A DNA stretch of 41,459 bases from Chiloscyllium plagiosum (Eukaryota). How positions within the stretch are numbered: position 1 is the stretch's first letter; each line of letters starts with the position of its first letter. The translations under genes were made by a program, and so were the position numbers. The notes under the pieces were generated by a model. That model was not told where the DNA came from, did not search any database, and saw only the letters and a program-made list of their open reading frames with translations. Positions 4,200-36,152 of the stretch are shown here, piece by piece. The stretch is taken from contig NW_025214312.1 of assembly GCF_004010195.1 (NCBI RefSeq), positions 1 through 41,459 of the forward strand, written 5' to 3'.

Positions 4200-6500
4200 T
4201 GTTACTTGAGGGAGAAACAATGATATAATTTTATCAAATAACTCATAAGTATGTACTATCTAATAGAGACCTCTTCTGCTTTTGTTCCAGATTAGAGATT
4301 TGCTTAAAAAACACAATTTTAACAGACACTTATGGAACCGATACAGAGAAGCAGGTGATTATTGTAAAGAATACCCTCTCTGTCAGTTCCCTGTGTCATT
4401 TGTTGGTGAGTGTCCCCTCAGACAAGACTGTGCAGCTTCGTGACGTCTGTGCGAGGAAGTTGGGGGTTTAGATTTTTTCGGAGACATGGGAAGATATTTG
4501 TGAAAATGCTAAAAGGATTTTGATCTATAATAGGATCCATTCCATGCAGTTGAAAATTCTTCATAGGTTCTATCTGACCCAAGATTTTCTCTCAACCTTC
4601 AAAGTGGGACTATCCTACAGCATGTCTTAAATGCAGAATGACTACAGGCACTCTTATTCATTTCATGTGGTCCTGCTGCAGGCTTTGTACATATTGGAGC
4701 ACTGTGTTAGGTGTGGTAGAGTGGGTCTTGGGGACCGAATTGGAAATCGACCCGGTTTCTCTTTTCCTGAGCTTGCCCAGAGTATCTTACGCAGATACAC
4801 ATGGGGAAAAAAAATATCCTTACTTTCTGTGCTAGGAAAAATATTCTGTGGTGTTGGATGTCTAACAACTCCGCGGGTCTGTTGGGTCTTTGTAAGTTCC
4901 TCATGGAGAATCTCCCTTTGGACTTTCTCACCAGCATGGTGCACCAAAAAACAGAGATTAATATAAGTCATAGAATCATAGAGATGTACAGCATGGAAAC
5001 AGACCCTTCAGTCCAACCACTATCCCAAACCAATCTAGTACCACCTGCCAGCACCTGGCCCATAACCCTTCAAACCCTTCTTATTCATATACACATCCAA
5101 ATGCCTCTTAAATGTTGCACTTGTATCCGCCTCCCCGACATCACTGGCAGCTCATTCCATACACGTACCACCCTATGTGTGAAATAGTTGCTCCGTAGTT
5201 CTCTATTGTATCTTTCCCTTCTCACCCTAAATCTAGACCCTCTCATTCTGACTCCCCGACCCCAGGGAAAAGACTTTACCTATTTACCCTATCCATGCCC
5301 TTTATAATTTTGTAAACATCTATAATGTCAGCCCTCAGCCTCTGACACTCCAGGGAAAACAGCCCCAGTCGTTTCAGCCTCTCTCGATAGCTCAAATCCT
5401 CGAACACTGGTAACAACCTTGAAATATGTTCTGAACACTTTCAAGTTTCACAATATCTTTCCGATGGGAAGGAGACCAGAATTGGACGCAATATTCCAAC
5501 AGTGGCCTAACCAGTGTCCTGTACAGCCGCAACATGATCTTCCAACTCCTGTACTCAATACTCTGCCCAATAAAGGAAGCCATACAAAAAGCCTTCTTCA
5601 AGATCCCATCTACCAGCGACATCACTTTCATGGAGCTATGAATCTGCACTCCAAGGTCTCTTTGTTCAGCAACACTCCCTGCGAACTTACCATTAAGTGT
5701 ATAAGTCCTGCAAAGATTTTATTTCCCAAAATACAGCACCTTGCATTTATCTGAATTAAACTCCATCTGCCACCTCTCAGCCCATTGACCATTTCGACAA
5801 TCTGAGGCGACCATCTTCGCTCTCCACTACACCTCCAATTTTGGTGTCATCTGCAAACTTACTAACTGTACCTCTTATGCTCGCATCCAAATCATTTATG
5901 TCAATGACAAAAAAGTAATGAATCCAGCACCGATCCTGGTGGTACTGCACTGGTCACAGGCCTCCAGTCTGAAAAACAATCCTCAACCATCACCCTCTGT
6001 CTTCTACCTTTGAGCCAGTTCTGTATCCAAATGGCTAGTTCTCCCTGTATTCCATGAGATCTAACCATGGGGAACCTTATCAAAACCCTTGCTGAAGTCC
6101 ATATAGATCACATCTACCCCTCTGCCCTCATCAATCCTCTTTGTTACTTACTCAAAAAACTCAATCAAGTTTGTGAGACATGATATCTCATGCACAAATC
6201 CATGTTGACTATCCCTAATCAGTCCTTGCCTACCCAAATATATGCACATCCTGTACCTCAAGATTCTCTCCAAAAACTTGCCCACTACCAACGTTAGGCT
6301 CACTGGTCTATAGTTCCCTGGCTTGTCCTTAACACCCTTCTTAAACAATGGCACAACGTTAGCCAACCTCCAGTCTTCCGGCACCTCACCTGTGACTATC
6401 CATATTGCAAATATCTCAACAAGAGGCCCAGCAATCACTTCTCTAGCTTCCCACAGAGCTGGAGGGTACACCTGATCAGGTACTGGGGATTTATCCACCT

Positions 6501-6718
6501 TTCTGGATCAGTGGTGCTGGAAGAGCACAGCAATTAAGACAGCATCCGAGGAGCTTCGAATTCGACCTTTCAGGCAAAAGCCCTTTATTCCTGATGAAGG
6601 GCTTTTGCCCGAAACGTCGATTTCGAAGCTCCTCGGATGCTATCTGAATTGCTGTGCTCTTCCAGCATCACTGATCCAGAATCTGGTTTCCAGCATCTGC
6701 AGTCATTGTTTTTACCTC
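6501..6718 (+). mobile_element. Non-autonomous fold-back Penelope-derived mini-element with 13-bp TSD
   Basis: Inverted arms 6501-6585 and 6597-6681. TSD atttatccacctt at 6489-6501 and 6719-6731. Interrupts CR1 ORF2. Confidence 0.85.
6586..6623 (+). ncRNA. Minimal type I hammerhead ribozyme motif
   Basis: CTGATGA (6591-6597), A, stem II GGGC-TTTT-GCCC, GAAA (6611-6614), CG, TC. Palindromic ACGT stem III. Stem I is short (tc/ga). Confidence 0.75.
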
Positions 6719-6877
6719 ATTTATCCACCTTAACCCGTTTCAAGACATCCAGCACTTCATCCTCTGTAATATGGACATTTTGTAAGGTATCACCATCTAT
6801 TTCCCTACATTTTATATCTTCTATATCCTCTTCCACAGTAAATACTGATGCACAATACTCGTTTAATATCTCCCCCA

Positions 6878-7583: not shown

Positions 7584-7800
7584 TGGGAGACTGTGTAACT
7601 GTTACACACAGACAAAGTGTTGTGTTAGAAAAATTTTAATGACAAGGAAAAGGGTATATTTGAGATAAAAATGTTCTCTGCTAGAAATTGTATTTTATAA
7701 TGAGATAAGTGTTTGGAATTTGTCTTTGGCTGAATACAATAAGGTGAGACAAATGAAATAACCAGAATGACTAATTGTGATTGGATATCAATAACCATAA

Positions 7801-8475
7801 CAGCCAGAAACCCTAACCACCTAGCCATACATCAAAGAAGTTTCAGAAATGACAGCCAGACTACTAAGACCCCTCAGATTCCTAGTAGCACACACAAACC
7901 AACCAACACGCTCAAACAAAAACTAACAGACTTAGAAGACCCAGTACAACCCATGGACAAAACCAATGTCATCTACAAAATTCCATGCAAAGACTGCCAC
8001 AAACACTACGAAGGACAAACAGGAAGAAAGGTAGCCACAAGGAGACACGAACACCAGCTAGCCACAAAAAGACACGACCCTCTCTCCCTCGCAGCCCTAC
8101 ACATGGATGAAGAACACCATTTCGATAGGGACAACACATTTATCCTGGGACAGGCTAAGCAAAGACATGCCAGAGAATTCCTCGAGGCCTGGCACTCCAA
8201 CCACAACGCTATAAACAAGCACATAGATCTAGATACCATCTATCAACCCATCAGAAAACGAACAGAAATGACATCATCACAAACCCCAGGAACCCCATCC
8301 AGGAGAAATACATAAATAGAAAGCAGGAGACAACAGCTTCACTTCACTTGGAGGTCGCCACTGATGATGTTACCGAGCCAGGTAATGAAACGTCTGCATA
8401 TCAAACCTACAGCTCAGCGAGCAAACCTACACCCTAAACATCAACCTCAGCTACAAACCTTCACAAACCTTTCAA
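7801..8475 (+). mobile_element. 5'-truncated Penelope-like element: GIY-YIG endonuclease fragment plus 3' region
   Basis: ORF 7767-8315 contains NVIYKIPCKDCHKHYEGQTGR...R..EH...AREFLEAWH...IN. Flanked by aaccataa at 7793-7800 and 8476-8483 (likely TSD). Confidence 0.92.
8357..8398 (+). ncRNA. Minimal type I hammerhead ribozyme motif in the PLE 3' region
   Basis: CTGATGA (8361-8367), T, stem II GTTACC-gagcca-GGTAAT, GAAA (8387-8390), CG, TC. Stem I ca/tg. Confidence 0.8.
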
Positions 8476-13352: not shown

Positions 13353-13601
13353 CCCTGTGCCCCAGTTTTGAGCTCTAAGTGACTCCCTCCTGTCCCTGTG
13401 TCGCATTCTGAAGCAGTTGAATGACAGCCTCCTGTTCCTGTGTCAAAGGCTCAAGCAATTGAGTAACTGCCTCCTGTTCCTGTGTCCAAGTCTCGAGCTA
13501 TGAGTGACTCCCTCCTTTCTCTGTGCCCCAGTCTCAAGCAGTTGAATGACTGCGTCCTGTTCCTGTGTCCCAGTCTTGGGCAGCTGCGTGACTGCCCCCT
13601 G
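13353..13601. repeat. ~42-bp minisatellite, about 6 diverged units
   Basis: Recurring cctgtgtcccagtctcaagcagttgaatgactgcctcctgtt-like unit. Confidence 0.8.
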
Positions 13602-13894
13602 ATCCAAGGTTTGCGAAAGTAGATGTCCTCCTCCTTCTACAGACTAACAGGCTCCAATTTCTCTGTGCTCACCTGCTGCTCCTGTCGAATGGAGTTGAGG
13701 GACTGAATGGCCTCTTCACATTCCTTACCGCTTCTCTTGACTAAAAGCCTTCCCCCTGTTTCTGTAAAACACCATTAAAATCTGAATGATGTATTTTTGT
13801 ATTTTACTCTCAGCAATTGAGCAAACAAGCTGACTGACAGAATTCAGAAGCTGAGTAGCCTCCTCCTATTCCTGTGTTATACACTCAAGAGACA

Positions 13895-16160: not shown

Positions 16161-17120
16161 TTTACATCAGGTCTTTCCTATTCCAAAACTAATTTGAAAA
16201 TAATATTTATGCTTAACAGACTTGAAAGTTAAATAAACACATCCTGCCCCTCTGTAACAGACTCGAGAGGCTGAATGGGCTCCTCGTGGCCCTCTGTAAT
16301 ACACTGGAGAGGCTGAATAGCCTCCTCCTTTCCTTGTGTAACAGACCAGAGACATTAAATGACACAGCAACCCGTGGATTATGAGCAGCCGTTAAACTGA
16401 ATCTGATAGAGGTTCATCCCTTCCCAGTTACAGAAACACAAACAACATAATGTACTCCAGGTACCCTCTCAGAAACACCTCATACAGCTGCAGCGACACA
16501 TCTCTTCGTTTTGAATGATTCTGTTTGCAAAATGTGCCAATATTCTAGGTTTCCACCTTTTCTAGTAGCAACAGGCTAATATGGGCTGAATGGCCTTCTT
16601 TTATCCCTCTGTAAGATGCCCATAGGGACAGAATTGCTTCGGCCTGTTACTGAGCAGCAGTTTAAATGCTCTGTCTCAAGGATTTGATAATAGGCCATTA
16701 AAACCAGGAGTAGCCTCACACTGGTCAATAAGTACCGTACTTTGGGTTCAGGTATCTAGAAACTTACCCACCCGAGTTTTTGTAAAGTAACCAATCTGTT
16801 ATTTTATAATTGCCTCTTTTCATAAACAGAGCAGAACATATATAGAACCTTGCAGTGTCCTGTTAATACTCCATAAAGAAATAAAAAAAAAGATTTAAAA
16901 GATTTAAAGATTCATGGTCCATCCCTCAGCAACCCTCATCCATTCCATCCAAACCCAGTAAATGTTCCCTTTGAAAGTGATATGAAAAGTGATGTGTGGA
17001 AGTGGTTAACTGAGCCTGTTTGTTTAGTCATGATTTGGAGATGCCGGTGATGGACTGGGGTGTACAAAGTTAAAAATCATACAGCAACAGGTTGTAGTCC
17101 AATAGGTTTAATTGGAAGCA

Positions 17121-17155
17121 CATTAGCTTTCGGAACGCCGCTCCTTCATCAGGTG
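17121..17155 (-). ncRNA. Minimal type I hammerhead ribozyme motif, copy 1
   Basis: Minus strand cac-CTGATGA-A-GGAGC-ggc-GTTCC-GAAA-GC-TA-atg. First stem I pair is mismatched (C/A). Confidence 0.7.
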
Positions 17156-17872
17156 ATAGTGGAGGGTACAATTCGAAGGCACAGAATTTATAGCAAAAAT
17201 TTACAGTGTGATGTAACTGAAATTATCCATTGAAAAATCCCTTGATTGTCTGTTGAGTCTTTCATCTGTTCGAATACCATGATAGTTTCATTTCTTTCAT
17301 GTATCAATCACAAAACCTTTTTCTTTTAAAGTTGCATTCTCAGGTTAGCTGTAACATTGAGTGATAGCTGGACAATATGTTGAAGCTGTTCGCCCCCTGT
17401 GTTCTCCATCTATACCATGATGTTTAGATTGATTCTAATCTGAAAAGTGAGATAACAGAGTTTTACATGAATTCACGTAGTTTTTGAGCAAAGTACAATG
17501 TAACTCTGCAAGTACAAATTTACCCAACAAAAAATATGTGTGCATGTGGGTCTTTGCCTGTTTGTGTGTGCGTTTGTTTTGGTTGGGGGTTGTGAGTGTG
17601 AGAGTGAGTGTATATGTGTGTGTAGTGATATAGAGTGCCTTAAGTCTGTGAGGGGGTGCATGTGTGAGTGTGGGAGTGTGTGTGTGTGTCTGTAGGAGTG
17701 TGTGTATGCGTCTGGGGTGGGGTTGTGAGTGTGTGTGAAATAGTGTATATGTGTGTGCGTGAGTGTAGAGTTTGTTTAGTCATGATTTGGAGATGCCGGT
17801 GTTGGATTTGGGTGTACAAAGTTAAAAATCACACAGCACCAGGTTGTAGTCCAATAGGTTTAATTGGAAGCA

Positions 17873-17907
17873 CATTAGCTTTCGGAACGCCGCTCCTTCG
17901 TCAGATG
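17873..17907 (-). ncRNA. Minimal type I hammerhead ribozyme motif, copy 2
   Basis: Minus strand cat-CTGACGA-A-GGAGC-ggc-GTTCC-GAAA-GC-TA-atg. Core intact, 3-bp stem I cat/atg, palindromic AGCT stem III. Confidence 0.8.
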
Positions 17908-18652
17908 ATAGTGGAGGACACACTTCTAAGGCACAGAATTTATAGCAAAAATTTACAGTGTGATGTAACTGAAATTATACATTGAAAAATACCTTGATTG
18001 TCTGTTGAGTCTTTCATCTGTTCGAATACCATGATAGTTTCATTCCTTCAATGTGTAAATCACAAAACCTTTTTCTTTTAAAGTTGCATTCTCAGATTAG
18101 CTGTAACATTGAGTGATAGCTCGACAATATATTGAAGATGTTCGCCCCCTGTGTTCTCTATCTATACCATGATGTTTAGATTGATTCTAATCTGAAAAGT
18201 GAGATAACAGAGTTTTACATGAATTCATGCAGTTTTTGAGCTCAGAGGTTTACATGAATTCATGTAGTTTTTGAACAAAGTACAATGTAACTCTGCAAGT
18301 ACAAATTTACCCAACCAAATATATGTGTGCATGTGGGTCTTTGCCTGTTTGTGTGTGCGTTTATCTTGGTTGGGGGTTGTGAGTGTGAGAGTGAGTGTAT
18401 ATGTGTGAGTAGTGATATAGAGTGCCTTAAGTCTGTGAGGGGGTGCATGTGTGAGTGTGGGAGTGTGTGCGCCTGGCTGAGATGGGGTGGGGGTTTGAGT
18501 ATCAGTGAGAGAGTGTATATTTGTGTGCATGAGTGTCGAGTGGTCTAAGTCTCTGATCGGATGCCTGTGTGAGTGTGGGTGTCTGTAAGGGTGGGTGTGT
18601 CTGTGTACATGTGTGTCCGTATGTATGTGTGTGCATAGGAGTGCCTGTGTGT

Positions 18653-18655
<3 letters not shown>

Positions 18656-18702
<47 letters not shown>
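18656..18702. repeat. (TA)n(CA)n microsatellite
   Basis: Seen directly in the sequence. Confidence 0.95.
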
Positions 18703-18704
<2 letters not shown>

Positions 18705-19226
18705 TGCAATGGTGGTCACCTGTAATGTGACGTGAACCTAATGTCCCGGTTGAGGCCCTCCCTATGGGTCCCGAAATTAGTTATCAGCCTCTGCTCGGCC
18801 ACTGTTCGCTGCTGCCTGTTCCGAAGTCCACCTTGAAGGATGGTCGCCAGAAGGTCCGAGGTTTAATGTCCTGGACCACTGAAGTGAAGGTCCGAGGTTT
18901 AATGTCCTGGACCACTGAAGTGTTCTCCAACTGGAAGCGAACACTCATGTCTGTTGATTGTTGTGCAGTGCCCATTCATCCGTTGTCGTAGCCTTTGCTC
19001 AGTTTCTCAGTGTTTGTTCAGTGACTGTGCTTAATTCCAATCTCCATGGATTCTAATTATTCCAGTGGAGGGTTTCCATCTTTAAATGATAAATAGGCGC
19101 CGTTCAATGTGTTATCCCAAAGTGTGAGCGGGAACATCACCGACAGCACTGACAGAGATCAACAGATTGAGAGAGAGGGGGCGGAGAGATCAGAATCTGA
19201 GAACATTAGACTGGAATGTTCCAACA

Positions 19227-19405
19227 ATGTATCAGAATCTGGGAATATTAGACTGGCATGTTCCAAAAATAGATAGGAGCTTTTCCAATTATGTTTGGTA
19301 TCTTTCTGTATTTTATTGCTGGTCATTATCATCGCGGATCTATTACGCTCTTCTCATTATTCAATATTTTTATTATCTTTTTTCTGGCTATCGTTGGTGT
19401 TCCTG
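19227..19405 (+). pseudogene. First coding exon of a GPR139/GPR142-like class A GPCR (expanded elasmobranch family), with a +1 frameshift; pseudogene or sequencing error
   Basis: ATG 19227 gives MYQNLGILDWHVPKIDRSFSNYVWYLSVFYCWSLSSRIYYALLIIQYFYYLF. Removing one T from the T6 run (19378-19383) gives LAIVGVP, followed by a phase-1 donor G|GTAAG at 19405/19406. This fits the YY..LA..GVP|VN TM1 split I recall for shark GPR139-like genes. Exon 2 was not found. Confidence 0.72.
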
Positions 19406-28434: not shown

Positions 28435-29030
28435 TGAGGAGAAAGTGGGGACTACAGATGCTGGAGATCAGAATCGAAGAGTGAATGAAGTTTATGGGCC
28501 AAGGGGGCTGAGAGACAAATGAGAAGGGCTGAGGCAGGGAGGAGGTAGCTGGGATTGCGATAGGTAGATGAAGGTGGGGTTGAAAGTGATAGGTGACGAA
28601 GGGAGACAGAACACCTCATCTACTGCGTCCATTAAACCCAATGTCGTTTTCTCTACATTGGCAAAGCAGGAGGTCAAATTGTGGATCATTTCAGAGAACA
28701 TCTCTGGGACCGCCATATTGAACAAATCCATCACCTTTTGGCTGAGCACTTCAATTCCCCTTCCCACTCTGCCAAGGACATGAGGATCCTGGGCTTGCTC
28801 CATCGCCAAACCCGAGCCACCAGAAGCCTGGAGGAAGAAAGCCTCCTCTTCTGCCATGGGACCCTCCAACCACAGGGGATCACAGTGGATACCACCATTT
28901 CCCCTAATCCCACCTTATCCGACTCCAAACTTCCAAATCAGCAAAGCCCTTTTGAACGCTCCTATCAATCTGGTCAACGCTTCTTCCTCTCAGACTATCA
29001 CTTTCAACCCCACCTTCATCTTCCTATTAG
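28435..29030 (+). mobile_element. Penelope-like fragment (GIY-YIG) with an inverted 5' pLTR piece
   Basis: 28610-28890 reads HLIYCVH*TQCRFLYIGK...FREHL...AEHFNSPSHS...EE..L...GTLQPQGI. 28560-28592 is the inverse of 28996-29028. Confidence 0.85.
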
Positions 29031-30554
29031 ATGAAAGGAGGCAGCTTAGAAAAATGCCAAGTGTTGCAGTAAGCCAGTGGATTCAAAGAGATATAGGACC
29101 CAGCAAAGGATGACCAAGAAACTGAGAAGAAAGTCAGAAAGAGAAAAATCGTGCAAATGAAAGAAAAACATAAAGACTGCTAAAAAGCGTATATCAATGT
29201 ATGAAATAAATAAAAATAAAGTCCAATGTGGAACAGTTGGTGTGCGTTCAGTATAATTTATTGCAGAGAACAGAGAAATCGCAGGGAAAAGAAACAATTT
29301 CTTTGTGTCTATCTTCATGGCAGAATGTCCAGAAATACTTCCAAAAATACCAAGTGACCACGGGACCTGTGTAATTAAAGCCTAAGACCATTCTAATCAA
29401 TGTTGAGGTCATCTTTGAAAAGATGGCTGGATTGAGTATTTATAAATCTGACAGTCCAGATGTACTTCATACAAGAATTTCAGAGGAAGCAGCAATAGAC
29501 ATGTTGATTGTATCGCAGATTTTCACTTTATTTTCCGACACATTCCCGAAAGGCATTTAGCCAATCTGGACAAGGCAAAGGTTATAAATATTATCCAACA
29601 GTTTAAGAAAAGATGAATTTGGAGAATGGTGAACGACAGACCAGTTATCTTGTCATCTGCAGTCATGTATCTGTTGGACTCGATTACAAAGAACATGCTA
29701 CTAGATATTTAGTAGGTAATAACATAACTGGGGAGTATGAGAATGTACCGATGAAAGGAAAACCAGAAGTGGCAAACATATTTTTGGAATGGTTTGAAGA
29801 TGATTCTTTTGGACAAAGGCAATGATGAACCATTGGATAACGTATAGTTGGATATTCATGAGCTTTTTTTAAATAACTCACACAGCAAGTTCATAAGAAA
29901 CATTAAAGCGAGAGGTATTGGGCAGAACATATGCAAATGCGAAAGTAAAAATTAGGTTTACATTCACGTGAATGTAATTGTAAGATAGAGGATGTCGTGC
30001 AACCGTTGCATCGAGCGTTGGTGAGACTAAACGTAGAATATTTTGTATCGTTCGGAGTCCCAATCTAAGAAAGAATATATTGACTACAGAGGAACTTTAA
30101 AAGGTATTATCCAGATTAATCCATAAAATGGCAATACTGTCTGATGGGGAACCTCAGCCTGTAATCTCGAGTTTCAAAACGTGAGAGTTGATTGTAGTGA
30201 ATCTTAGAAACATCGAAAGGACTGAATAACAGAGGGGCATGAAGAAATACAAGTAGGAGAGATCAGGAAGAATCCCACGATATTCTATACGGACAAGTAG
30301 AACAGAATAATCAGCAAACAGTTAGTGTCCATTTGAAACCAAAGGGGCAATCTGTTTGTCAAGCTGGAGAACATTGATGGATTGTTACATGAGACCTTCA
30401 CATCTATTTTACTTGGGAGAAGGAGGAGGCAGGTACAGAATTCAAGAAGATGAACTAGGAAGGTCTTGAAAAGATTAATGTAAAATACGAGCAGGGATTT
30501 GAGGTTTTGTTCTGTACAAATTTGGACCAATCTCCATGCCTGAATGAGTTGTAT

Positions 30555-30770
30555 TCTTTGAGGAGAAAGTGAGGTCTGCAGATGCTGGAGATCAGAGTTG
30601 AAAATGTGTTGCTGGAAAAGCGCAGCAGGTCAGGCAGCATCCAGGGAACAGCAGAATCGACGATTTGGGCATAAGCCCTTCTTCAGGAAGAAGGGCTTAT
30701 GCCCGTTGATTCTCCTGTTCCCTGGATGCTGCCTGACCTGCTGCGCTTTTCCAGCAACACATTTTCAGCT
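30555..30770 (-). mobile_element. Fold-back Penelope-derived mini-element with 15-bp TSD and degenerate HHR
   Basis: Arms ~30593-30684 and 30687-30773. TSD ctgaatgagttgtat at 30540-30554 and 30771-30785. Minus strand CTGAAGA-A-GGGC-TTAT-GCCC-AAAT-CG-TC. Confidence 0.88.
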
Positions 30771-31639
30771 CTGAATGAGTTGTATCACAGGCGGCTGTTG
30801 GTGTCAAAGGAGGAAAGACCCTGACTGAATATTTTAATTAGAATCTGACCATAGGGGAGGTGTAGAGAACTGGAGAACTGCTAATACGATTCCACCTCAC
30901 AGTTAGGGTAGGAGAGATAGACCAGGGAACTATAGACGAGCGAGTATTAGATCACCGTTAAGGAAACTACTGGATAAAATAGGGAAGGAAAAAATCGAAC
31001 TCCAATCAGAGTTCGCAAGGTTTGATCAGGGATAATCATCATGACTTTATCAGGAGAAAGTCACATCCAATGGATTTGATTGAATTAGTTTGAGGAGGTC
31101 GATTATTTAGTTTTGTAGAAAGGCCTTTGAAAATTTTCCACCTGGGAAACTGAAAAATATAATAAAATCTCACAATATGGTGAATAACTTGACAAGTTAC
31201 AATGACAATTGCCTTAATAGCAGGAGACAGATGGTGGTAGGAGAAAGCTGTTTGTGTGACTGGAGACCAGTGTCCCCTGGTGTACCACAGAGATCAGTGT
31301 TGTGTCCCTTATTATTTGTGTTATTTATAACAAAATATAAATCTGAATGTGGAGGGGGTTAGGTGGAGAAATGGGAAGGTGTGATAAGTAAGTGTATGTT
31401 TGACATAAAGATTGCCTGGGTGGTTAGCAGTGAGGGGAAGGCCTTAAGTTACAGAAACATGCAGATGGAATGGCCAGATGGGCACATCAATGGCAGATAG
31501 AATGTAACTCTGATAAATATGAGCTGATGCACTTTGGGAGAAGGAACCCGGCAGGGGAGGACTCAATGATTGGCAGCACACTGGGAAGCTCAGTTTGTGC
31601 TTCTCCACACATCCCTGAATGTGACTGGACAGGGTAATG

Positions 31640-31842
31640 CTTAAAAATTGTTGCTAGAAAAGCGCAGCAGGTCAGGTAGCATCAAAGGAGCAGGAGAATC
31701 GATGTTTTGGGCAGATTCCTGAAGAAGGCTTATGCCCAAAACGTTGATTCTGCTGCTCCTTTGATGCTGCCTGACCTGCTGTGCTTTTCCAGCAACACAT
31801 TTTTAAGCTCTGATCTCCAGCATCTGCATTCCTCACTTTCTC
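31640..31842 (+). mobile_element. Fold-back Penelope-derived mini-element with 15-bp TSD and degenerate HHR
   Basis: Same family as 30555-30770, opposite orientation. TSD ctggacagg(g/t)taatg at 31625-31639 and 31843-31857. CTGAAGA at 31719-31725, then AAAA-CG-TT. Confidence 0.85.
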
Positions 31843-33469
31843 CTGGACAGGTTAATGGACTAGTTAAGAATTGGACCTTGGGTGCAGCGTTTCCTAATCA
31901 GGGTGTAGATTATAAGAGCAATACAGGGCTTTGGTTCGGCTAAAATGGAGTACTGTATGTAGCTACGGGAACCACATTCCAGGAAGGATGTAATTGTACT
32001 GGAGAGGGTGCAGAGGTGATTCACCAGGATGTTCCCTGGNNNNNNNNNNNNNNNNNNNNNNNNNNNNNNNNNNNNNNNNNNNNNNNNNNNNNNNNNNNNN
32101 NNNNNNNNNNNNNNNNNNNNNNNNNNNNNNNNNNNNNNNNNNNNNNNNNNNNNNNNNNNNNNNNNNNNNNNNNNNNNNNNNNNNNNNNNNNNNNNNNNNN
32201 NNNNNNNNNNNNNNNNNNNNNNNNNNNNNNNNNNNNNNNNNNNNNNNNNNNNNNNNNNNNNNNNNNNNNNNNNNNNNNNNNNNNNNNNNNNNNNNNNNNN
32301 NNNNNNNNNNNNNNNNNNNNNNNNNNNNNNNNNNNNNNNNNNNNNNNNNNNNNNNNNNNNNNNNNNNNNNNNNNNNNNNNNNNNNNNNNNNNNNNNNNNN
32401 NNNNNNNNNNNNNNNNNNNNNNNNNNNNNNNNNNNNNNNNNNNNNNNNNNNNNNNNNNNNNNNNNNNNNNNNNNNNNNNNNNNNNNNNNNNNNNNNNNNN
32501 NNNNNNNNNNNNNNNNNNNNNNNNNNNNNNNNNNNNNNNNNNNNNNNNNNNNNNNNNNNNNNNNNNNNNNNNNNNNNNNNNNNNNNNNNNNNNNNNNNNN
32601 NNNNNNNNNNNNNNNNNNNNNNNNNNNNNNNNNNNNNNNNNNNNNNNNNNNNNNNNNNNNNNNNNNNNNNNNNNNNNNNNNNNNNNNNNNNNNNNNNNNN
32701 NNNNNNNNNNNNNNNNNNNNNNNNNNNNNNNNNNNNNNNNNNNNNNNNNNNNNNNNNNNNNNNNNNNNNNNNNNNNNNNNNNNNNNNNNNNNNNNNNNNN
32801 NNNNNNNNNNNNNNNNNNNNNNNNNNNNNNNNNNNNNNNNNNNNNNNNNNNNNNNNNNNNNNNNNNNNNNNNNNNNNNNNNNNNNNNNNNNNNNNNNNNN
32901 NNNNNNNNNNNNNNNNNNNNNNNNNNNNNNNNNNNNNNNNNNNNNNNNNNNTGTTAAATTATGTCAGTGTGAGAAATATGAGAAAACAAGTGCAGTTTCC
33001 TTACAGTTTGAAACCAGAGAATGGAGAATGGGGAACACGGAAATGGCAGAACTATGAAGCCACTACTTCAGTTCTGTCTTCACAGAACTTTCTAACAATA
33101 CCAGGAAAACCGAGTCTGGTGTGGGGAAAATGATGGAGTACATGGAACAATAAACATAGTAAGTAAATGGTTTCGCAGAAATTATTATTGCTGGTCATAG
33201 ACAGCATTAACATAGATTTATGAAATGGGAATTATGTTTGAGAAACAAACTGGGAGACAAATGAAAGAGAAGCAATGGATGTAAAACATTTTGATTTTTA
33301 GGAAAATGTTGGTAAAGCTCCAAGCCCAATTTGCAAAATCAATTCTGAGTGGATTGGGGCTAATATATGGGCATGTTTCTAGAATGGGACGGCTGGCAGG
33401 AAACAGTGAATAGAAATAAACAGACTCGTCAAGTAATAGCCTGACATTTTCTGAAAGGTATGATTCTGT

Positions 33470-36152
33470 GAGTATGACTATGTCCCAGACTCCCCATTAC
33501 CTTCCCCGGATATCTCCTGTCTCATCAGCAGGACCGACACAGTAGAAGTGGCGGTACAGTGGGATACAGTTGGAAGGGAATTGCTCTTGGAGTCCTCAAC
33601 AGTGACTCCGTTTCCCATGAAGTCTCATGGCATTAGTTTGCACATGGGAAAGGAAACCTCCTGCTGATTACCATATACCAGCCTCTCTCAACTGATGAAT
33701 CAGTACTCCTCCATGCTGACCAACACTTGGAGGAAGCACTGAGGGTAGCACGTACGCAAGAAGTACTCTGGGTGGGGGATTTCAATGTTCATCACCAACG
33801 GTATCTCAGCTACATCATTACTGATCGAGCTGGCCGTGTCCTAAAGGATATAACTGGCGGCAGGTGGTGAAGGAACCAACAAGAGGAAAATACATACTTG
33901 ACCACAGCCTTCCTAATCTGCCAGTTGCAGAAGTATCTGTCCATGACAGTATCGGTAAGAGTGACCACCGCATAGTCATTGCGGAGACAAAGTCACACCT
34001 GCATACTGAGAATAACCTCCACCATTTTGGGTGGTACTATCACGGTGCTTAATAGGGCAGACTTCGAACAGATCTAGAAGCTCAAATCTGGGTGTTCATA
34101 AGGTGTTGTGGGTCATTAATAGCAGTGGCATTGTATTCCCACATAACCTCATGGCCTGGCATATCCCCTCGCAACAATTACCATCAATCCAGAGGATCAA
34201 CCTTGGTTCAATGGAGTGTGCAGGATGGCAGGAGCAGCACCAGGCATTCCTGACAATGAGGTGAGAGCCTGGTGATGCCACCAAACAGGACAACGTGTGT
34301 GCCAAACAGCAGAAGCAGTAAGTGATAGACAGAGTTAAGTGATCCCACAAGCAACGGATCAGATCTCAGCTCTGCAGTCCTTCCACATCTCGCCGAGAAA
34401 CATTGGGGACAATTAAACAATTCACTGGAGGAAGAGATCCCACAAATAACCCCTTCCTCCATGATGGAAGAGCCCAGCACTTCACTGTATAAGATAAGGC
34501 TGATGCATTCGCAACAATCTTCAGTCAGAAGTGCTGAGTGGATGATCCATTTCAGCTCCCTCCAGTGGTCCTCAGCAATTCAGTTACCCGTCATCAAACA
34601 ATTCGATTAAGTCCACGCGATATCCAGAAATGATTGGAGATACTGGATACTCCAAATGGTCCATAATCTGACAACATTGTGGCAATAGAACTGAATGCTT
34701 GTGCTCCATAACTTGCCAATCCCCTAGACAAACTGTTTCAATACAGTTACTACAATGGTTTTCCCCGATTATGTAGAAAATTACCCAAGCATCTCCTGTA
34801 TATAAAAAGCAAAACAAATCCAATCCGGCCAATTACCACTCCATCAGTCTACTCTCGATCATCAGTAAAGTGGTGGAAGGTCTCAGTGCTTTTAAGCAGC
34901 ACCTGCTCAGCAATAACCTGCTCAATGACGACCAATGTGGGCTCCACAAGGGCCACTCAGCTCCTGACCTCATTACCGTTGTTCAAACATGGACAACAGA
35001 GTTGAATTACAGAGGTGGGGTGATAGTGACAGCCCTTTAAATCAAGGCTGAATTCGACCCTGTGTGCTATCAAGGGGCCTTAGCAACACTGGAATCAATG
35101 GGTATCAGAGGCAAACTCCCCGCTGGTTAGAATCGTATCTGACACGTAGGAAGATGGTCACGGTTGATAAAGGTCAGTCAACTCAGTTCCAAGTCTGCAG
35201 GAGTCCCTCGAGCAGTGGCCAAAAACATCTTCAGGGCTGCTTCATCAATGACCTTCCCTCCATTTTAAGGTGAGAAGTGGGGATGTTCGCCAATGATTGT
35301 ACAATGTTCTGCAACATTTGTGGCTCGTCAGATACTGAAGCAGTCCATGTTCAATTACAACAAGATCTGGACAGTATCCAGGCTGACAAACGGCAAGTAA
35401 TATTCAGGCCACACAAATGCTAGACCATGACCATCACCAATAAAATACAATCTAACATGCCCCTTGGTATTCAATGGTGTTACTATCACTGAGTCCCCCA
35501 GTATCAAAGTCCTAGTGGGTAATCATTGCTCAGAAACTCACTGGTCTCGCCACATAAACACAGGTCAGGAGCTTGGAATACTGTGGCGAGTAACTCACAT
35601 CCTGATTTCCAAAAGTCTGTCCATCATCCACAATGCCTAAGTCGGAAGTGTGATAGAAGACTCCCAATTTGCCTGGATGAGTGCAGCCCCAACAACAATC
35701 AAGAAGCTTTATACCATCCAGGACAAAGCAACCAGTTTGATTGTCCCTTCATCCACAATGCTCCACCATCAACGGTCAGCAACAGCGCAGTGTTTTACTA
35801 TCTACATGCTGCAGTGAAATGATTCATCAAAGATCCTCAGAGACCACCTTCCCAACTGACGACCATGTCTATCTCGAAGGACAAGGGCTGCAGATGTATG
35901 GAAATGCCATCATCTTTAGGTTCCCTCCAAGCCATTCACCATCCTGACTTGGAAATATATCACCGCTCCTTCACAGTCACTGGTTCAGAATCCTGGAATT
36001 CTCTCCCTAATGGCATAGGAGGTCAATCACAGCAGGTGGACTGCAGCATTCAACAAGGCAGCTCACCACCACCTTCTCAAGGGCAACTAGGGTCAGGTAA
36101 TAAATGCTGGCCCAGACAGTGACACCCAGATTCACGAAATAAGTAAATAGAA
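33470..36152 (+). mobile_element. Near-complete decayed ORF2 of a second CR1-group LINE family
   Basis: Endonuclease motifs (TFPGY, GDFNVHH, VKEPTRGKYILD, IGKSDH). RT motifs (NPANYHSISLL, KAEFDPV, INDLPS, MFANDC). 3' end with aataaa and A-rich tail. Confidence 0.85.

Follow-up and report, generated by a model that had tools for sequence, protein, structure and literature searches.

Metazoan Penelope-like elements (PLEs) carry minimal hammerhead ribozymes (min-HHRs) in their pseudo-long terminal repeats (pLTRs), for which weak cleavage of dimers has been reported and a circle hypothesis put forward (Cervera and De la Pena 2014, PMC4209133). PLEs also form partial tandems, and in D. virilis up to 30% of the copies are tandem according to the group of papers that describe them (PMC8557442, PMC2377424, PMC3846280, PMC11167929). 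Two other arrangements are comparable: tandem transposable element dimers of R1, jockey, and the P element in Drosophila (10.1101/158386) and non-LTR retrozymes, which possess two type I hammerhead ribozymes (HHRs) as direct repeats and occur as both linear and circular monomer RNAs (Cervera and de la Pena 2020, PMC7229834). A PLE ancestry of retrozymes was proposed by Li, Clavereau, and Pollet in 2026 (10.64898/2026.07.22.740005). Here, we describe a locus in Chiloscyllium plagiosum (contig NW_025214312.1, positions 1 to 41,459; this 41,459-nucleotide stretch is referred to as the window) where two truncated ends of one PLE family, each with a min-HHR motif, follow one another on the minus strand. 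With confidence only slightly above even, we read the pair as a decayed head-to-tail dimer of two 5'-truncated PLE ends that arose by double insertion at a single site and was later homogenized.

On the minus strand, the order is target-site duplication (TSD), copy A (17781 to 19011), TSD, copy B (17029 to 17769), and TSD. Copy B is a 5'-truncated, noncoding 3' end (pLTR) of the family, and copy A is a longer 5'-truncated copy comprising the end of the endonuclease gene and the 3' noncoding region. The TSD is an 11-mer found outside the 3' end of the element (17018 to 17028) and again between the units (17770 to 17780), where it ends in 2 nt (minus-strand AC) that the family sequence also has at the truncation of B; AC microhomology is present at both 5' junctions. 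A third copy, identical at 10 of 11 positions, occupies 19012 to 19022, the 5' truncation point of A, where the endonuclease homology ends. This outer match has a chance probability of about 6e-5, and if the next base is included, 11 of 12 positions are identical. The first-pass annotation had remarked that the 11-mer starts both units and had warned of a duplication; the warning was apt, but the third copy was overlooked. Its description of two 752-bp repeats holds for the offset of 752 nt, but the units are unequal and only B together with its 11-mer amounts to 752 bp (17018 to 17769). The portion of A that matches B is approximately 772 bp, carries a 35-nt duplication (18208 to 18274) not found in B, and is without 17 nt that B possesses. 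Gapped identity between the copies is 87.7%, with A extending further, into the coding remnant. Three other PLE-type inserts in the window are flanked by duplications of 13 to 15 nt (three of three examined).

To place the ends of the element, unit B (16850 to 17769) was compared with public runs from related organisms, not from this species: X1 and X8 (DNA contigs), X21 (raw RNA reads), and X16 (presumed RNA). Matching records numbered 26,076 in X1, 36,564 in X8, 3,188 in X21, and 7,829 in X16, mostly 85 to 95% alike. Counts of differences from the family are partial, as they draw on 40 of 105 rows, and so are those of joints, of which 15 of 131 were available. The 3' end of the family is marked at 17028 to 17031 by loose ends (at least 1,491 in X1) whose flanks are mixed, placing the 11-mer outside the element. 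The high copy number, fixed 3' end, and variable 5' truncation seen in these related organisms, together with the short TSD, are as expected of a PLE. A 20-nt family motif had no matches in viral contigs, two in prokaryote genomes, and five in metagenomes; these seven matches, only 20 to 28 nt in length, were dismissed as chance. Among the joints listed, one of the type seen in the 35-nt duplication of A (17489 to 17456) is present in X8, X21, and X16, with similar joints in X1. The junction of this locus (17769 back to 17018) does not figure among the 15 joints listed, which says nothing of its absence from the runs. Separately, one X1 contig has a tail-to-internal joint from 17693 to 17035 with 30 intervening letters, so other partial tandems exist in the family.

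The flank adjoining B (16900 to 17017, minus strand, left end approximate) is itself moderately repeated in the related organisms and probably represents an independent repeat that received the PLE. Its summed depth is approximately 30,000 in X1 and 60,000 to 106,000 in X8, compared with 2 to 4 million in the PLE tail (1 to 3%); it is nearly absent from X16, and it ends near 16900 in an AT-rich simple run. One X1 contig on this repeat stops exactly at 17028, as expected of an empty site. Two further records (record 2 in X1 and record 17 in X8) span the junction of flank and element at approximately 88% identity, pointing to an old insertion shared with related organisms, and X8 record 17 also spans a low-copy stretch past the flank repeat, as an orthologous filled site would. 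We favor the reading that the right flank is a repeat of its own, into which the PLE was inserted long ago. In a comparison of nine flank reading frames with Pfam, aimed at whether the two flanks are one interrupted repeat, nothing scored under an E value of 0.05, and one left-flank frame had no matches in two protein collections. The flank repeat may resume at 19023 and beyond.

The locus shares with the Drosophila dimers the features that double insertion at one site leaves behind, namely, a junction that runs from tail to internal sequence and contains a copy of the target, and 5' truncations that differ between the two units, and like them it is a substrate for unequal exchange (10.1101/158386). 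It differs in being a PLE in a shark-like genome and in a shared decay that double insertion alone does not explain. With the published PLE partial tandems, it has in common the head-to-tail 5'-truncated copies forming pLTRs, the short TSD, and the microhomology at the 5' junctions. Unlike in those tandems, both copies here are truncated, which precludes expression of a complete unit; the longer of the two lies upstream, and a target-site copy separates the units. In the parts of the open literature searched, no PLE tandem was found to be described as containing a TSD. PLEs are said to insert beside existing copies (PMC6765202). Under double insertion, the element's endonuclease would have cut the target with a stagger of 11 to 12 nt, and reverse transcription would have started at the family's usual end, stopped early, and joined through the 2-nt microhomology. 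The target thus restored would then have received a second copy, either within that event or subsequently, with a copy of the target staying at the junction. There are signs in the sequence that two different templates were used, as the 5'-most 58 nt of B are divergent and the 35-nt variant is known in the family.

To compare the histories of the two copies, 33 sites at which B differs from the family majority were examined (the 40 listed rows minus 6 flank rows and row 17706, which is found in X21 only). At 17 of these A shares the changed letter, at 13 it carries the family letter, and at 3 it has a third letter or a gap; fewer than one shared change would be expected by chance. Copies A and B are each approximately 5% off the family majority, half of which is common to both; of the 662 positions aligned up to 17690, 34 differ between them. 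Thus, A and B exchanged or shared sequence after decay, and independent mutation histories are apparent only at the 5' end of B and in the 35-nt variant. The shared letters are interleaved with private ones and are equally rare in relatives (Mann-Whitney P of 0.19 to 0.88 in four of four runs). Together with the decay of the endonuclease remnant described below, this shows the source of the shared letters to be a decayed genomic copy, unless a dead source was mobilized. As 17 of 33 changes are common to A and B over approximately 650 nt, double insertion has to assume a later exchange: both copies would have decayed by approximately 5%, and midway gene conversion or unequal exchange would have made approximately 650 nt alike, sparing the 5'-most 85 nt of B and the 35-nt length difference. 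A hint of patchy conversion with different ages was not significant (P = 0.11).

The same 17 shared changes are accounted for directly, and with no conversion, if a single old insertion (TSD-A-TSD) decayed and a slip in repair or replication then duplicated its last 752 bp, with B later losing one 35-nt repeat; the locus would be inert in this case also. Several observations suit such a duplication. Further local duplications of 35, 36, and 42 nt are present at the locus, the junction has the 2-nt microhomology with 7 of 12 bases matching, and B possesses the derived letter of the first copy of A's 35-nt repeat (17478), as expected after a later deletion. If the right flank were an extension of the family, no coincidence with the TSD edge would be required either. 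With the flank taken as a separate repeat, however, the breakpoint must have come by chance to lie no more than 1 nt from the outer edge of the TSD. The first 58 nt of B, which correspond to part of A at 18470 to 18541 (minus strand), differ from A at 11 positions, compared with 30 of 654 elsewhere (Fisher P = 2e-4), and this fourfold divergence is hard to obtain at a single age (P = 1e-4); the adjacent CA-rich stretch is not likewise divergent. In addition, the 35-nt difference is a variant that already existed in the family. On this evidence, a DNA-level duplication is possible but doubtful.

An improbable third account is that a variant source, species specific or nonautonomous and 2.6% off the family majority, gave rise to both units in a single event. 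The reverse transcriptase would have copied the target overhang after a first round and before a second, and no conversion would have taken place. It explains the three TSD copies and the shared letters together, and the reads of relatives could not reveal a subfamily private to this species. Against it, two of the shared letters weaken the ribozyme, the shared letters match the private ones in rarity in four of four runs, and the junction-spanning contigs suggest an older insertion. The endonuclease remnant of A is also too decayed for an age of 2.6% (P = 0.002), unless the source was already dead: when it is set against the majority letters among 10 close homologues (of 24), 14 of 80 columns differ, or approximately 13 after removal of an alignment artifact, which fits neutral decay of 5% (P = 0.16).

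Double insertion followed by homogenization has its own costs. It needs an extra event, a near-complete homogenization over approximately 650 nt that probably took two tracts flanking the 35-nt difference, and a plain DNA duplication would give the shared changes with no such step. The right flank, being a repeat, could be a rare 3' extension of the PLE family; the counts of differences and joints are partial; and the family data come from other organisms, leaving room for a private subfamily. Exchange between the copies is itself suggested by the shared changes.

Each copy carries one hammerhead core on the minus strand, with C3 at 17904 in A (motif at 17873 to 17907) and at 17152 in B (motif at 17121 to 17155), an offset of exactly 752 nt. 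Both are minimal type I motifs composed of CUGA-N-GA, an extra A, stem II, GAAA-GC-UA, and a palindromic AGCU that forms the vestigial stem III. Thus, the CUGANGA/GAAA/UH core, a stem II closed by G10.1-C11.1, and one additional base after A9 are all present. Stem II has 5 bp in both copies (G-C, G-C, A-U, G.U, and C-G) and a GGC loop. The copies differ at N7, which is C in A and U in B, and at position 2.1, where A has a U that pairs with A1.1 and B has a C that leaves a C2.1-A1.1 mismatch. Cleavage is predicted at 17876/17875 (A) and 17124/17123 (B). The first-pass annotation had proposed the same two cuts, and its account of two PLE-type minimal hammerheads in tandem, with this spacing and with the first stem I base paired only in the copy at 17873 to 17907, is borne out by the cores, stem II, and the palindromic stem III. 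A relaxed min-HHR descriptor gave five matches in the window, compared with a mean of 0.15 and a maximum of 2 in 200 shuffles; Rfam at the gathering threshold gave no match anywhere in the window. The motifs resemble the min-HHRs of metazoan pLTRs (PMC4209133) in their core, the extra base between 9 and 10.1, G10.1-C11.1, the palindromic 15.2-16.2, arguably the short stem I, and the position in a terminal repeat, and also in belonging to families of thousands of mostly solitary copies. They differ from these in a stem II of 5 bp, a stem I of at most 3 bp (4 to 5 bp in the min-HHR families of S. mansoni, PMC4209133), and changes through which both copies have weaker stems than the family majority.

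The stems are damaged in both copies. Stem I is 3 bp in A and 2 bp plus a mismatch in B, whereas the family-majority letters would form 3 bp. In the family majority, position 1.1 is G, and the G.U that A and B carry in stem II is a G-C pair; both copies thus inherited weakened stems. A C-to-U change private to A (17905 and 17875 are the positions involved) restores the first stem I pair that was lost through a shared G-to-A change; this may be chance or compensation, which a single site does not distinguish. Greater conservation of the core than of its flanks, by which the first-pass annotation had proposed to judge the pair, was not found, as the 35-nt ribozyme motif has 4 changes from the family and the unit has 51 in 662. 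All 13 core nucleotides are intact in A and B, but under neutral decay this has a probability of 0.35, and selection on the hammerhead core is not supported.

The pair could in principle act as a retrozyme-like unit, as the first-pass annotation had suggested: a read-through transcript would fold into a double hammerhead, be cut twice, and release a 752-nt RNA that may circularize. This would suit the intact cores and palindromic stems III, the spacing of one unit, and a G+C content of approximately 40% (40.2% in the monomer, within the <45%, or by a looser limit approximately 45 to 50%, of non-LTR retrozymes, with which the locus also shares direct-repeat type I HHRs, a noncoding spacer, and the PLE ancestry that Li et al. 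propose; PMC7229834). Min-HHR dimers do cleave weakly in vitro (PMC4209133), and PLE-derived tandem HHR repeats, predicted as non-LTR retrozymes derived from PLE ends, are reported from 20 of 31 vertebrates, including the one chondrichthyan of the preprint (10.64898/2026.07.22.740005). In a double hammerhead, however, stem I forms between the copies. The 5' strand of A is predicted to pair fully with the 3' strand of B (3 bp), serving the cut at 17124/17123, and the 5' strand of B would meet the 3' strand of A with a C.A mismatch directly beside the cut at 17876/17875; stem I has 3 bp at most. In the modeled fold of a 951-nt transcript, stem II has a probability of 0.05 in A and 0.6 in B, the intercopy stem III has a probability of 0.0000, and forcing the dimer helices would cost +11 to +16 kcal/mol. 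The 752-nt monomer is no more structured than shuffled sequence (z score of +1.15 in a linear fold, with 19 of 20 shuffles as good or better), and in this it is unlike the highly self-paired retrozyme circles of corals and plants (PMC7229834).

Other comparisons point the same way. The HHRs of the locus are minimal and not canonical, without the extended stem I and its loop 1-loop 2 contacts, and its monomer of 752 nt exceeds the 150 to 450 bp of described retrozymes (PMC7229834), although it lies inside the 51- to 972-bp range of Li et al. (10.64898/2026.07.22.740005). Only two units, both imperfect, make up the tandem; they adjoin a coding remnant and enclose target DNA, and a rolling circle that copies a monomer RNA would leave no such target-site copy between units. 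The retrozyme-like reading is thus unsupported. Li et al. define a retrozyme as a repeat called by TRF, with a period of up to 1000, that contains a complete HHR with a minimum free energy below -5 kcal/mol in two consecutive units. The minimum free energies here are -5.2 and -4.8 kcal/mol for the 35-nt motifs and -5.9 and -5.8 kcal/mol for 41 nt, and TRF at their settings gave no 752-bp period and did not call the A/B pair as a tandem repeat; the locus therefore falls outside that definition. Only one of nine tested Xenopus dimers cleaved in the same preprint, and no promoter or open reading frame start was seen at the locus. Taken as a whole, a working retrozyme is very improbable, and we hold with high confidence that the locus is an inert PLE dimer. 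Points in favor of some function are the two intact cores, the restored pair in A, and the stem II probability in B; folding models also miss protein-assisted cleavage of the kind reported for a lizard PLE, whose hammerhead needs the help of protein (PMC11167929). On these grounds, the locus might be a snapshot of a PLE turning into a hammerhead satellite, in which double insertion and homogenization were followed by a residual, possibly protein-assisted release of a 752-nt RNA. The locus would then be a shark retrozyme in the making, one that owes its origin to double insertion and not to a rolling circle. We consider this scenario highly unlikely.

The RNA of the family in a related organism bears on the fate of any transcript. 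Poly(A) begins at 17092 and 17095 in X21 (267 and 478 reads with poly-T loose ends, respectively), 12 to 15 nt past an ATTAAA signal that is kept in B (17107 to 17112, minus strand) and in A (17859 to 17864, minus strand), where it lies between both hammerheads. Thus, transcription that enters A would usually be expected to stop at the signal past hammerhead A, before reaching B, and a poly(A) signal separating the motifs argues further against a retrozyme. A read-through transcript would be cut weakly at best, at the B site more readily than at the A site, and this bias, combined with early polyadenylation, would make the 752-nt monomer an unlikely product. The X21 reads are mostly of the element sense strand, with even depth across the cut (941, 960, and 1,089 at 17103, 17123, and 17135, respectively) and no pile-up of read ends at it, which a poly(A) library would hardly show; none of the 3,188 reads came from this locus at 99% identity. 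The poly(A) site is approximately 30 nt downstream of the hammerhead, and genomic copies usually extend approximately 63 nt beyond it. Polyadenylated RNA thus cannot be what the usual copy is made from, which is consistent with read-through RNA on which initiation is internal (Frangieh et al. 2024, PMC11167929).

The coding remnant of A (18719 to 19006, minus strand) is the C-terminal part of a GIY-YIG endonuclease, cut off just after the YIG motif. It contains an in-frame stop, which is repeated by an exact 36-nt duplication (18850 to 18922). The first-pass annotation had recognized a GIY-YIG remnant ahead of the repeats, and 24 homologues, mostly shark gene models (best E value of 1.5e-29), agree with it. 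One of them, P0003, passes the Pfam GIY-YIG model; no Pfam family scored on the remnant alone, and tblastn upstream of the truncation found no match. A GIY-YIG domain upstream of the HHR-bearing end is the arrangement of endonuclease-positive PLEs. A CX5CxxC linker, outside the span of the truncated copy in the window, was found in 9 of the 24 homologues; P0024 also matched, but through a RING domain that is unrelated, and was discarded. As a zinc finger-like CX2-5CxxC linker before the endonuclease is a trait of Neptune and Nematis PLEs (Craig et al. 2021, PMC8557442), the element is likely of the Neptune type, as judged from the linker in homologues. The 3' noncoding region of A also contains a (TA)17 microsatellite (18656 to 18689).

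Other elements with related features are present in the window. Palindromic mini-inserts of another family, with flanking duplications of 13 to 15 nt, were identified at 6489 to 6731, 30540 to 30785, and 31625 to 31857; in the first, the hammerhead core (at +6591) is intact, and the cores of the other two are broken or partial. A second GIY-YIG-like remnant followed by a hammerhead core (at +8361) lies on the plus strand at 7743 to 8450 and belongs to a different PLE family, and a third, at 28636 to 29034, has weak similarity to the GIY-YIG homologues (tblastn E value of 4e-4). A hammerhead-like match with a long spacer (38 nt) at 35856 to 35905 lies within another repeat and may be chance. 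Unrelated short arrays, each with a 42-nt period, occur at 13354 to 13605, 16242 to 16346, and 19189 to 19270.

That no shark example had been characterized, as stated in the first-pass annotation, stands for experiments, as no experimentally tested shark HHR was found in the parts of the open literature searched, but predicted chondrichthyan retrozymes have been reported (10.64898/2026.07.22.740005). Tandem PLE ends and tandem hammerhead repeats in a cartilaginous fish are thus already published, and the locus is probably an ordinary by-product. In a genome with so large a family, PLE ends that stand in tandem and bear two hammerheads are to be expected, and the locus alone matters little. 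Two details, the target copy in the junction and the polyadenylation of family RNA short of the genomic end, could be useful to specialists if they held genome-wide. The formation of PLE tandems has been called open (Schostak et al. 2008, PMC2377424) and has been assigned to circles (Cervera and De la Pena 2014, PMC4209133). If the target copy in the junction proved true genome-wide, it would mean that some partial tandems arise by repeated insertion at one site and not from circular RNA templates.

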